This document shows positions 3,001-6,000 of a stretch of DNA of 36,735 nucleotides, piece by piece. The stretch's first letter is position 1, and every line of letters starts with the position of its first letter. The stretch comes from a virus (taxonomy: Duplodnaviria; Heunggongvirae; Uroviricota; Caudoviricetes). Made by a program: the position numbers. Location of the stretch: positions 1 to 36,735 of the IMG/VR virus record IMGVR_UViG_3300045988_080861. One strand, written 5' to 3'.

Positions 3001-6000
3001 GTTTCCATTTCAGTTCAAACTTTAGCCCTTGTATAGGTATACAATCCTCATCCAAGGGGATGATATGGGCTTGTAGCCACATATCAGAGCGACTTGGTTT
3101 CTGTTTCCATTTAACGCCAGAAAAGTTAACTATTTTTTTACAATAAAGTACTTTATCAACTTCTACTTGGCTTGGCTGATAATCATCTATTTTTGCCAAT
3201 GTTTACCGCCCTGTAAATTGTAGATAAAAGTGGTTTCATCACCCAAACGTCTCTTCAGGCCATTGGCTGGCGATAACTTTCCCCACAACGGAACAACTCT
3301 CATTGCATGGGATCATTGGGTATTGTGGGTTTAGTGGCTGTAGAAACACCTGACCGCTATCCCTGATCAGTTTCTTGAAGGTAAATTCATCACCACCAAG
3401 TCTGGCTATGCAGAAATCGCCGGGCTCAACAGCTTGCTCAGGGTCAACCAGAATTAACATCCCGTCAGGAAAGCTGGGTTTGGAACCTGTTGGTGCGGTC
3501 ATTGAGTTACCTTCAACCTCAAGCCAGAATGCAGAGTCACTGGCTTTTTTGGTTGTGCTTACCAATCTCTCCGCATCGCCTTTGGTAAAGGTTCTGAGTT
3601 CTGGAGAGAACATCCCAGCCTGAACATGAGAAAAAACAGGGTACTCATATTGTTTTTTAACTGGGGCCGATGAGTATTCGCCAACAGGTGAAAATGTCCC
3701 GTCGTGGTTGAATGATATGTTATCAATACCAAGGTATTTAAACACCACACCAATATCACTAAGAGATGGATGACGAGATCCGCGCAACCAGTGTCCAATC
3801 CCACCCTGCGTCATACCTAGCTCTTCGGCTAACTTCTCTTGAGTTATGCCGAGCTCTTTCATTCTGGATCTAGCCAGTTCATACCATTTCATTTTCATGT
3901 CCTTATTATTACGCTCTGTACTGGAACCATCCATGCACAATGTGTATTTTTACTTGTATTCGCAAAGTACATATTGTATTTTTTTATTCGTGTTTACTAT
4001 GGAGGGCATATGAGCAACCTACGAAAATATCGAGAGTCACTGAATATCTCTCAAACAACACTTGCTAAGGCAGTTGGATGCACACAGGGAGCTATCGGAC
4101 ATTGGGAATCTGGTCGTCGCTTCCCAGACCTTAAAACATGCCGTGCTCTTGTTGCGTGCCTAAACAAGTTAGGCGCAAAAGTCAGTCTTGATGACGTGTT
4201 CCCGCCGGAACACAAAGCCGCTTAATAAGCGGATCCGCTCTTTGTAACAACGGACATTCGTCCTACGTCGCTGAAAAGCGAGTTCCAAGATATCTGACCA
4301 ACTAAGGCCATATGCGTTTCCACGCATACCTTTCAACTAACTATTCACTATTGGAAATCTTAAGAAATGGAAAGAACAAGTTACAGCAAACTATCACAGC
4401 GTGACGTTGATCGCGCAGAAACAGATTTACTTATCAATCTGTCAGCTATTACCCAGCGCGGTCTGGCAAAGATGATTGGCTGTCATGAATCGAAGATAAG
4501 CAGAACGGACTGGAGATTTATTGCTTCGGTCTTGTGTGCTTTCGGAATGGCATCAGACATCAGTCCGATTAGCAGGGCTTTTAAGTATGCGCTTGATGGA
4601 CTCACCAATAAAAAACGCCCGGCGGCAACCGAGCGTTCTGAACAAATCCAGATGGATTTTTAACTGCTTTCTATGGAGTTAATTATGGCAAAAAAACCTA
4701 CACCAGACCAGGTAAAAAAGATTCGTTCCGGCATTACCAAGAAAATACGGTTTGAGGTTTTCAAGCGCGATGGCTTCAAATGCCAGTACTGTGGGAGTTC
4801 TGCGCCAGACGTCATCCTTCATGTCGACCATATCAACCCAGTTAGCAAGGGTGGCGATAACGACATGATGAACCTTATTACTTCTTGCGATAGTTGTAAT
4901 GGCGGGAAAAGCGACAAACTGCTCAGCGATAACTCAATAATGGAAAAGCAAAGGCAGCAACTCCAGGAACTTAATACCAAGCGAGAGCAACTGGAGATGA
5001 TGATCAAGTGGCGAGATGGTCTTAAGAGCCTGAAAGACGATGTTGTTGATATTGTCGCTACCAAAATTGACGACTGCATTGCACCATTTACTGTTAATGA
5101 CAATGGGCGAAAATCTATCAAGAGATGGCTTCGAATATATAAGCTTGAAGAAATCCTCGATGCGATTGAGATTGCCGCAGATAAAAAACTCACCCAAGAA
5201 ATAACCCATGAGCTTACTGGTGAATTCTTTGAGTACATCCCTCGCATAGCAGCGACAAAAAGAAAACCGCCAAAAGAACAAAGGATTCTATACATCAGAG
5301 GAATCCTTAAAAACCGCATATATATCAATCAAAACCATGTAATGAGTTATCTCAAGGCATGGCTTTCATACGACTTAGATCTCGATGAACTTACTGAGTT
5401 TGCGAAAACAGTACCTAACTGGACAACGTTCAAGGAGTGGGTATCTGAACGCATTCGTGAAGCTCAGGAAGAACTCCCGTACTAAAGGTGGACAAAATGG
5501 CACGTTCAAGAAATATCAAACCAGGCTTTTTCACCAATGATGAATTAGCTGAGTGTTCTCCATATGCCCGTCTCCTTTTTGCCGGGTTATGGACTATTGC
5601 TGACAAAGAAGGGCGGTTGGATGATCGCCCAAAGAAAATTAAAGCAATGGTACTGCCTTTCGATGATGTGGACTGCAATGATCTGCTTCAGCAGCTTCAC
5701 AGTCACAAATTCATCAACCGATATCAGGTAAATGGCGGCTCATATATCCAAATCAATAACTGGAAAAAGCACCAGAACCCTCACTGCAAAGAAGCAGCCA
5801 GTGAGATACCAGAACCAGTAGAGAACAATAACAGCACCATGCAAGTACAGTGCAAGGACGATAAAGAGGAAGAGAAGGAGGATGCCGAATCACTACAAGT
5901 CATTGAAAACAATGGAGCACCAGAAAAGCACCATGCAAGTACAGTGCAAGAACCAGTAGAGAACAGTTTAAATCCTGCTGATTCCCTTAACCTGATTCCT

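Follow-up and report, generated by a model that had tools for sequence, protein, structure and literature searches.

The immunity region of a phage of the class Caudoviricetes, taken from IMG/VR virus record IMGVR_UViG_3300045988_080861 and analysed over positions 1 to 36,735 of that record (36,735 nucleotides, hereafter the window), raises the question of how a cI repressor gene can be nearly that of phage lambda in one part and unlike it in the other. An initial annotation, made from the sequence, had placed recombination joints inside the cI linker and inside the neighbouring cII gene. The comparative analysis reported here makes it very probable that this segment is a lambdoid immunity and lysogeny-control region of the VT2-Sakai/Stx1-phage/Nil2/ev207 type, built of interchangeable modules whose borders are functional borders. 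With members of this type the window shares 97-100% DNA identity over 3650-4600 and 98.8-100% identity in the N-terminal domain of the repressor, and its six operators match the list published for VT2-Sa.

Extent and edges of the similarity to lambda

The elements of cI and cII in which the comparison with lambda was anchored are the following.

3239-3898, minus strand: cI, 219 amino acids (aa) from ATG 3898 or 217 aa from ATG 3892, from the open reading frame (ORF) list and Pfam
3238-3649, minus strand: lambda-type cI C-terminal module, with the hinge end, the predicted Ala94-Gly95 cleavage site, the Ser132/Lys175 pair and the dimerisation/cooperativity surface
3649/3650: cI hinge joint, between codons 83 and 84, with the similarity to lambda and to HK97 stopping at 3649 in both cases
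3650-3898, minus strand: immunity-specific cI N-terminal DNA-binding domain (HTH_3), 16 of 83 aa identical to lambda, no BLASTN match to lambda
4367-4663, plus strand: cII, 98 aa (Pfam Phage_CII, PF05269, E = 7e-34, profile positions 1-91 of 91)
4235-4600, plus strand: nutR/tR1 region and cII body (codons 1-78), of HK97/933W/21 type
4600/4601: cII joint, between codons 78 and 79
4601-4659: lambda-allele cII tail (codons 79-98), 58 of 59 nucleotides (nt) identical to lambda, with the predicted oop overlap and FtsH tag

BLASTN comparison of the window with the lambda reference (NC_001416; word size 11, E < 1e-5) aligned window 3238-3649 to lambda 37226-37637 over 412 ungapped bp with 27 mismatches (93.4% identity, E = 2e-179), and window 4601-4659 to lambda 38591-38649 (E = 5e-23), and returned no third match within 3238-4663. 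Base-by-base comparison and ungapped bins revealed that identity moves between background (about 8-11 of 30 positions) and 26-29 of 30 within about 3 nt at the edges of these matches. At the left edge of cI, the bin ending at 3237 contained 8 identical positions out of 30, and the bin starting at 3238 contained 27; at the hinge, the bin spanning the joint (3628-3657) contained 25 of 30 and the next one (3658-3687) 11 of 30. Identity rose from 4 of 15 up to 4600 to 15 of 15 from 4601 at the entry into the cII tail, and fell from 13 of 15 in 4646-4660 to 6 of 15 after it. Pairwise alignment with lambda and with other lambdoid phages thus outlined sharp identity boundaries and not uniform divergence. 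Both joints proposed by the initial annotation are present as sharp steps, but the proposal was incomplete, as three more joints had escaped it, two at the stop codons of cI and cII and one immediately after cro. The cI N-terminal domain, cro and the rest of cII, which had been described as different from lambda, are indeed devoid of DNA matches to it in this BLASTN search.

The C-terminal domain of cI had also been described as identical to that of lambda. This holds for the protein, in which 135 of 136 residues are conserved and a Leu replaces a Trp as the sole change, but not for the DNA, in which 26 of the 27 differences are synonymous and the synonymous divergence (dS) amounts to 0.37, with a ratio of nonsynonymous to synonymous divergence (dN/dS) of 0.008. 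Ala94-Gly95, Ser132 and Lys175 of the window protein align with the corresponding lambda residues, and Pfam identified a helix-turn-helix domain (HTH_3) at residues 11-58 (E = 1.9e-10) and a Peptidase_S24 domain at residues 87-209 (E = 1.1e-28). By its HTH and its predicted self-cleaving S24 domain, with an Ala-Gly site and a Ser/Lys pair, the protein can be classed with LexA/lambda cI-type repressors. Since the joint falls ten residues before the Ala-Gly bond and three before the start of the Peptidase_S24 match, it lies in the hinge, the linker between the two domains.

The lambda-type C-terminal module is present at 92-95% identity in lambda, HK97, mEp234, HK106 and SfI. In a tblastn search against phages, the N-terminal domain was found at 96-100% identity in about 63 phage records, with Salmonella phage repressors at about 52% coming next. 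A protein homologue search with the 83-aa N-terminal domain returned 12 truncated fragments and no full-length repressors, and was uninformative on partner C-terminal domains.

For cII, the claim that about 18 terminal residues are identical to lambda captured a lambda-like tail that is in fact 20 codons long, with 19 of its 20 residues conserved. The preceding segment (4235-4600) is 93-97% identical to mEp234, HK106, HK97, 933W and Min27, all of which have other immunities. The non-lambda cII body is the widespread HK97/933W/21 type and is not specific to the immunity type of the window.

Reassortment of modules among lambdoid phages

Comparison with ten other phages mapped five joints in the region (3238-3245, 3649/3650, 4226-4234, 4600/4601 and 4647-4660), of which those outside the cI and cII reading frames or at their ends are as follows.

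3238-3245: joint at the cI stop codon; matches start at 3238 in lambda, 3241 in Stx phages, 3243 in HK97 and 3245 in Louie
4226-4234: joint just after cro, where the immunity-specific segment has its right end; Louie matches as far as 4225, and HK97, 933W and Stx1_121427 match from 4235 onwards
4647-4660: joint at the cII stop codon; ev207 and lambda match up to 4659 and HK97-type sequences up to 4647, and an HNH/replication-initiator/DnaC-type module begins

Beyond the joint at the cI stop codon, two different genes stand in place of lambda rexA/rexB; past the cII stop codon, the similarity to Louie, Dewey and Stx1_121427 extends to about 7520-7547, with 98.6-99.1% identity. The phages compared combine these modules in different ways. 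Phage ev207 corresponds to window 1-4659 at 99.96% and then carries lambda O/P. In Louie and Dewey, the cI and cro of the window recur (93%), followed by a cII body of lambda type and by window 4601-7547 at 99%. Stx1_121427 contains window 1760-3268 and 4235-7519 flanking a different cI/cro, with a 933W-like C-terminal domain. HK97 shares the lambda-type cI C-terminal domain (3243-3649) and 4235-4647 and has a lambda-type N-terminal domain, and 933W has only 4235-4647 in common with the window.

All four combinations of cI N-terminal type and cII body type are represented (window, Louie, lambda and HK97), which argues for recombination. Each of the two cII tail alleles is found together with replication genes of lambda type as well as with others, the lambda-type tail accompanying lambda O/P in ev207 and the HNH-first module in the window and in Louie. 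Likewise, the lambda-type cI C-terminal domain is joined to two unrelated N-terminal domains. Its alleles do not sort by N-terminal type, since the C-terminal domain of Louie is closer to HK97 (94.2%) and lambda (92.9%) than to the window (90.8%). In the c2 repressor of ST64T, an N-terminal domain of the same family as that of the window repressor (47% identity) is paired with a 21/P22-like C-terminal domain (44%), indicating that the hinge has served as a swap point more than once. The expectation of a hybrid immunity-region pattern is supported by this reassortment across phages, with the qualification that the non-lambda cII body does not belong to the immunity type.

Two features of the Stx1a phage Stx1_121427 were observed in addition. 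Its cI is a second hinge mosaic, with a 933W C-terminal domain and a different N-terminal domain, and just downstream of this 933W-type cI, at positions 2127-2156 of its own record (L010), lies a 30-bp relic of the 3' end of a lambda-type cI (equivalent to window 3239-3268), which looks like the scar of an earlier repressor replacement.

The same pattern might be sought in vertical descent without recombination, with the N-terminal domain, cro and the cII body changing fast under diversifying selection and the rest being constrained. The strong purifying selection on the C-terminal domain evident from its dN/dS fits this reading, as do the double constraint on the cII tail (oop/tO and FtsH tag) and the comparison of the window with SPN9CC, whose cI has diverged faster in the N-terminal domain (48% identity) than in its lambda-type C-terminal domain (80%). 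However, the fall of DNA identity from about 93% to the background level is complete within about 3 nt. Because this step adjoins codons with a dS of only 0.37, faster substitution is ruled out, and point substitution does not suffice for 19% aa identity and a different length; furthermore, the four combinations of N-terminal domain and cII body are impossible without exchange. Descent of this kind is therefore highly improbable, and uniform divergence with uneven constraint was rejected on account of the sharp steps and of the four-combination reassortment. The sequence comparison supports recombination, not uneven constraint, as the source of the joints. A chimeric assembly of the contig has a negligible probability and was likewise rejected: the identical arrangement is found at 100% in the independent isolates ev207, ev017, PhiR57_1 and PhiR63_2, and 631 complete Escherichia coli genomes carry at least 80% of the region.

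The joint inside cII calls for separate consideration, given the additional signals that this segment contains.

4376-4389, minus strand: putative CII-binding repeat TTGCTGTAACTTGT (TTGYN6TTGY), at the expected pRE -35, cII codons 4-8
4612-4639, minus strand: strong intrinsic terminator identical to lambda tO, a 12-bp stem followed by a T run
4682-4690, minus strand: putative extended -10 of a pO-like promoter, TGcCATAAT; the lambda pO alignment gives TGtCATAAT and 7 nt to +1

In lambda, the 77-nt antisense oop RNA covers the last 52 nt of cII and its stop codon (PMC5869508; PMC3349717), and the 16 C-terminal residues of CII are both required and enough for degradation by FtsH (PMC5869508). 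The window terminator is identical to positions 46-77 of lambda oop. As tO lies inside the tail and the oop overlap and the FtsH tag are known in lambda, the tail, a segment conserved in all lambdoids, would by analogy be triply constrained, as protein tag, antisense RNA and terminator, and part of its similarity to lambda reflects constraint. The tail could accordingly be regarded as a universally conserved oop/terminator element only, and not as a recombination joint. Irrespective of cII body and replication genes, it can be aligned across all nine of the compared phages, and it holds the tO hairpin; phage 21 also pairs a lambda-like tail with an HK97/21-type body, and this pairing may be old. 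The tail nonetheless exists as two alleles, one present in lambda, ev207, the window and, roughly, phage 21, and the other in HK97, Nil2, the Stx1 phage, HK022 and, roughly, 933W. Nil2 and the Stx1 phage, which have the nearest cII bodies (97% up to 4600), carry the second allele, with many differences from the window tail, whereas lambda matches that tail at 58 of 59 positions. Moreover, Louie and Dewey match window 4601-7547 and yet possess a lambda cII body. Conservation as the only explanation of the tail is thus improbable, and exchange at about 4600 is still required because the nearest cII bodies come with the other tail allele. The sharp edge against the unrelated cII body of lambda is an old, shared boundary.

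The TTGYN6TTGY motif, defined from the annotation of phage 21, has only 3 matches in the whole window on both strands. Downstream of cII, the 33-bp pO/oop-5' linker that is conserved in 23 lambdoid phages (Hayes et al., PMC3349717) is degenerate in the window (4660-4692), which lacks 11 nt there and has several substituted positions in comparison with nine other phages. The -10 of the pO-like promoter is kept, and its -35 retains only three of six positions. TGcCATAAT overlaps ATG 4685 of the downstream HNH gene, for which a start at 4685 is more likely than one at 4673, and the survival of the -10 within the degenerate linker can be explained by this overlap with the ribosome-binding site and ATG of that gene. 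An oop-like RNA of about 66 nt, from 4674 to about 4609, is plausible. An Rfam scan of window 1-9000 gave no oop, nut or boxB match and only a chance snoRNA, Rfam being without an oop family. The same degenerate linker was observed in Louie, Dewey and Stx1_121427, all with the HNH-first replication module.

The immunity-specific block and its operators

The comparisons above limit the immunity-specific block to 3650-4234, comprising the cI N-terminal domain, the right operator (OR) and cro. Together with the left operator (OL), its regulatory features are these.

3907-3981: OR, three 17-bp operators (OR3 3907-3923, OR2 3933-3949, OR1 3965-3981)
1647-1721: OL, three 17-bp operators (OL1 1647-1663, OL2 1672-1688, OL3 1705-1721)
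4010-4225, plus strand: cro, 71 aa, HTH_3 (Pfam E = 4e-12), without DNA homology to lambda cro

Operator coordinates were mapped from the putative operators annotated in Stx1 phage AP005153, four of them exactly and two with a one-base difference. OR1-OR3 are identical to those of AP005153 and to the VT2-Sa operators (Table S1, PMC10742460), and OL2 and OL3 are each one base off the VT2-Sa and Stx1-phage versions. The consensus of the six operators is AAGTACAATTTGTACTT (about AAGTACA-N3-TGTACTT). A symmetrised position weight matrix (PWM) was evaluated by leave-one-out, building it from five sites and scoring the sixth among 36,719 window positions, and the held-out operator ranked 1st or 2nd of these positions in all six cases. 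The inverted-repeat finder missed the operators, their dyads being too imperfect, and the bare palindrome AGTAC-N5-GTACT with up to two mismatches was not enriched window-wide (9 found against 7.5 expected); for this reason, the specificity of the operator motif is to be read solely from the leave-one-out ranking. Lambda-consensus operators (TATCACCGC half-sites) with up to three mismatches were not detected near OL or OR, and the three matches elsewhere in the window are near chance (mean of 0.68 in shuffles, with at least 3 in 3 of 100).

The non-lambda operator specificity anticipated by the initial annotation is thus supported at the sequence level by six non-lambda 17-mers at OL and OR, where lambda-type operators are absent. 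With these operators and only 16 of 83 residues of the N-terminal domain in common with lambda, the region falls outside imm lambda. In Louie and vB_EcoP-720R6, cro travels with the cI N-terminal domain.

The location of OR also bears on the start of cI. The longest cI ORF (3239-3940, from TTG 3940) would overlap OR3 and OR2, and annotated starts vary among records, giving 231 aa in ev207 and AP005153 and 217 aa in Nil2. The longer starts are disfavoured because OR3 would fall inside the coding sequence. We favour ATG 3892 as the probable start, given that the annotated start of SPN9CC cI aligns there and that a putative AAGGA ribosome-binding site is present.

The spacing between operator centres was 25 bp for OL1-OL2, 33 bp for OL2-OL3, 32 bp for OR1-OR2 and 26 bp for OR2-OR3. 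This asymmetry contrasts with the roughly 23-24 bp found throughout in lambda, despite the presence here of lambda's cooperativity domain.

From these elements we infer the following mode of operation and origin. The HTH N-terminal domain would read the six 17-bp operators in the OL and OR triplets, and the lambda-type S24 domain, joined to it at the hinge, would supply RecA-stimulated self-cleavage, dimerisation and cooperativity. The cII gene would combine an HK97/21-type body, containing its own putative pRE binding repeat, with the last 20 codons of the lambda allele, the opposite strand of which would encode the 3' part and terminator of an antisense oop RNA, while the protein side would provide the FtsH tag. 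The homology shared among phages would thus reside in the cI C-terminal domain, in the cII tail with oop and in the linker that follows. Homologous recombination at these stretches between co-resident lambdoid phages could then swap the variable blocks, and the hybrids would survive because the joints lie between domains. The recombination mechanism, the binding of operators by the window CI and the expression of an oop-like RNA are all deductions of this kind. What the sequences show directly are the steps in identity, the reassortment across phages, the domains present, the motif of the operators and the terminator.

Several observations weigh against this interpretation. Of the four ways to combine cII body and tail, only three occur among the phages sampled. 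The direction and number of exchanges are not recoverable, and lambda itself may be a recombinant. Given the dS of its C-terminal domain relative to lambda, the cI joint is old and does not reflect a recent exchange with lambda proper. Binding of CI to the six sites is read from sequence, and a sigma-70 consensus scan called neither pR, pL and pO nor pRM, the promoter positions resting on the lambda alignment and on existing annotations. Lastly, the operator sequences do not explain the VT2-Sa/lambda cross-immunity, which is reported in PMC10742460 and attributed there to Fattah et al. 2000.

In view of this reported cross-immunity, complete heteroimmunity is not to be assumed. Lambda CI binds VT2-Sa sites weakly, its apparent dissociation constant being 3.7-6.4 µM there and 0.2-3 µM on its own sites (PMC10742460). 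With a C-terminal domain that differs from that of lambda at a single residue, the window repressor could conceivably form mixed dimers or cooperative tetramers/octamers with lambda-type CI, resulting in partial cross-immunity or coupled induction. We consider this unlikely overall, but if true, mixed CI oligomers could explain the cross-immunity of VT2-Sa and lambda, and the shared pool of C-terminal domains would constitute a unit of interaction among co-resident lambdoid prophages.

Neighbouring modules and comparison with known systems

The segments flanking the immunity region contain further modules. In the position of rexA/rexB downstream of cI (1893-3199, minus strand), we identified two genes, one for a protein of 185 aa that matches DUF6978 weakly and the other for a 250-aa DUF1828 protein. 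Each component of the candidate defence system PDC-M24 in PADLOC is matched by this pair (A with E = 5e-4, B with E = 5e-10 along its entire length). The pair occurs also in ev207 and Stx1_121427, and probably constitutes a prophage anti-phage module expressed with cI. The replication module (4685-7232) replaces lambda O/P and encodes an HNH endonuclease (266 aa), a 298-aa initiator without a Pfam match and a DnaC/IstB-like loader. It is rare as a whole, being covered over at least 80% of its length in only three of the phage records searched (Stx1_121427, Louie and Dewey). Lambda similarity reappears at window 1-565 (98% to lambda 33916-34480, the ea10-ral region), at 1768-1889 (90% to the lambda terminator region upstream of rexB) and at 8656-9099 (92% to lambda ninB). 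The window is thus a mosaic of the same kind throughout.

The region itself is ordinary, being common in E. coli and having an arrangement that has already been described. Window 3100-4656 is 100% identical to ev207, ev017, PhiR57_1 and PhiR63_2, and window 3241-4633 is about 97% identical to VT2-Sakai, the Stx1 phage, Stx2 II, Nil2, 2851, 1717, YYZ-2008 and PA-series O157 phages. The 631 genomes carrying at least 80% of its length were detected among 5,426 complete E. coli genomes (about 1 in 9), and ATCC 11775 and ATCC 25922 carry the region at 99.9%. Immunity type, operators, domain pattern relative to lambda, oop linker and recombination at these places have all been published. Published work lists the operators, and the cI domain pattern dates from 2000: according to PMC10742460, Fattah et al. 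2000 described high C-terminal and low N-terminal homology between VT2-Sa and lambda cI.

The analysis nevertheless provides a clean case of how lambdoid phages evolve by modules, the joints coinciding with domain borders and short conserved linkers, together with a predicted operator set for this prophage. It also improves annotation, by proposing a better start codon for cI, limiting the immunity block to 3650-4234 and recognising the cII tail as an oop/tO/FtsH-tag segment.

Among known systems, the closest are the Stx phages VT2-Sakai, AP005153, Stx2 II, Nil2, 2851, 1717 and YYZ-2008, together with ev207, ev017, PhiR57_1 and PhiR63_2, which share cI, OR, cro, nutR and the cII body with the window at 97-100%; relative to VT2-Sakai-type operators, four are identical and two differ by one base. 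The Stx-phage members differ in their HK97-type cII tail and in their replication genes, while ev207 and ev017 have the lambda-type tail of the window but lambda O/P instead of its HNH/initiator/DnaC-like module. The join of the window to this module is seen also in Louie, Dewey and Stx1_121427. Outside its own type, the N-terminal domain comes closest (47-52%) to those of the Salmonella phage repressors SPN9CC cI and ST64T c2, the former having a C-terminal domain that is also of lambda type.

With lambda, the window has in common the gene order and logic of cI-OR-cro-cII-oop, the C-terminal domain of the repressor, including its cleavage and catalytic residues, and the cII tail with tO. It differs in that the cI N-terminal domain, the operators, cro and the cII body are unrelated in DNA, in the replacement of rexA/rexB, and in the 5' part of oop and the pO -35. 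The hybrids lambda imm434, lambda imm21 and lambda/P22 arose by exchange at short conserved sequences flanking variable blocks, as in the window. A lambda imm21 hybrid shows altered cII sequence left of oop, and a lambda/P22 hybrid has its crossover inside pO (PMC3349717), and these two places correspond to the window joints at 4600 and about 4660. Those imm434, imm21 and P22 hybrids were made in the laboratory, whereas the window presents a natural and widespread combination with a degenerate 33-bp linker.

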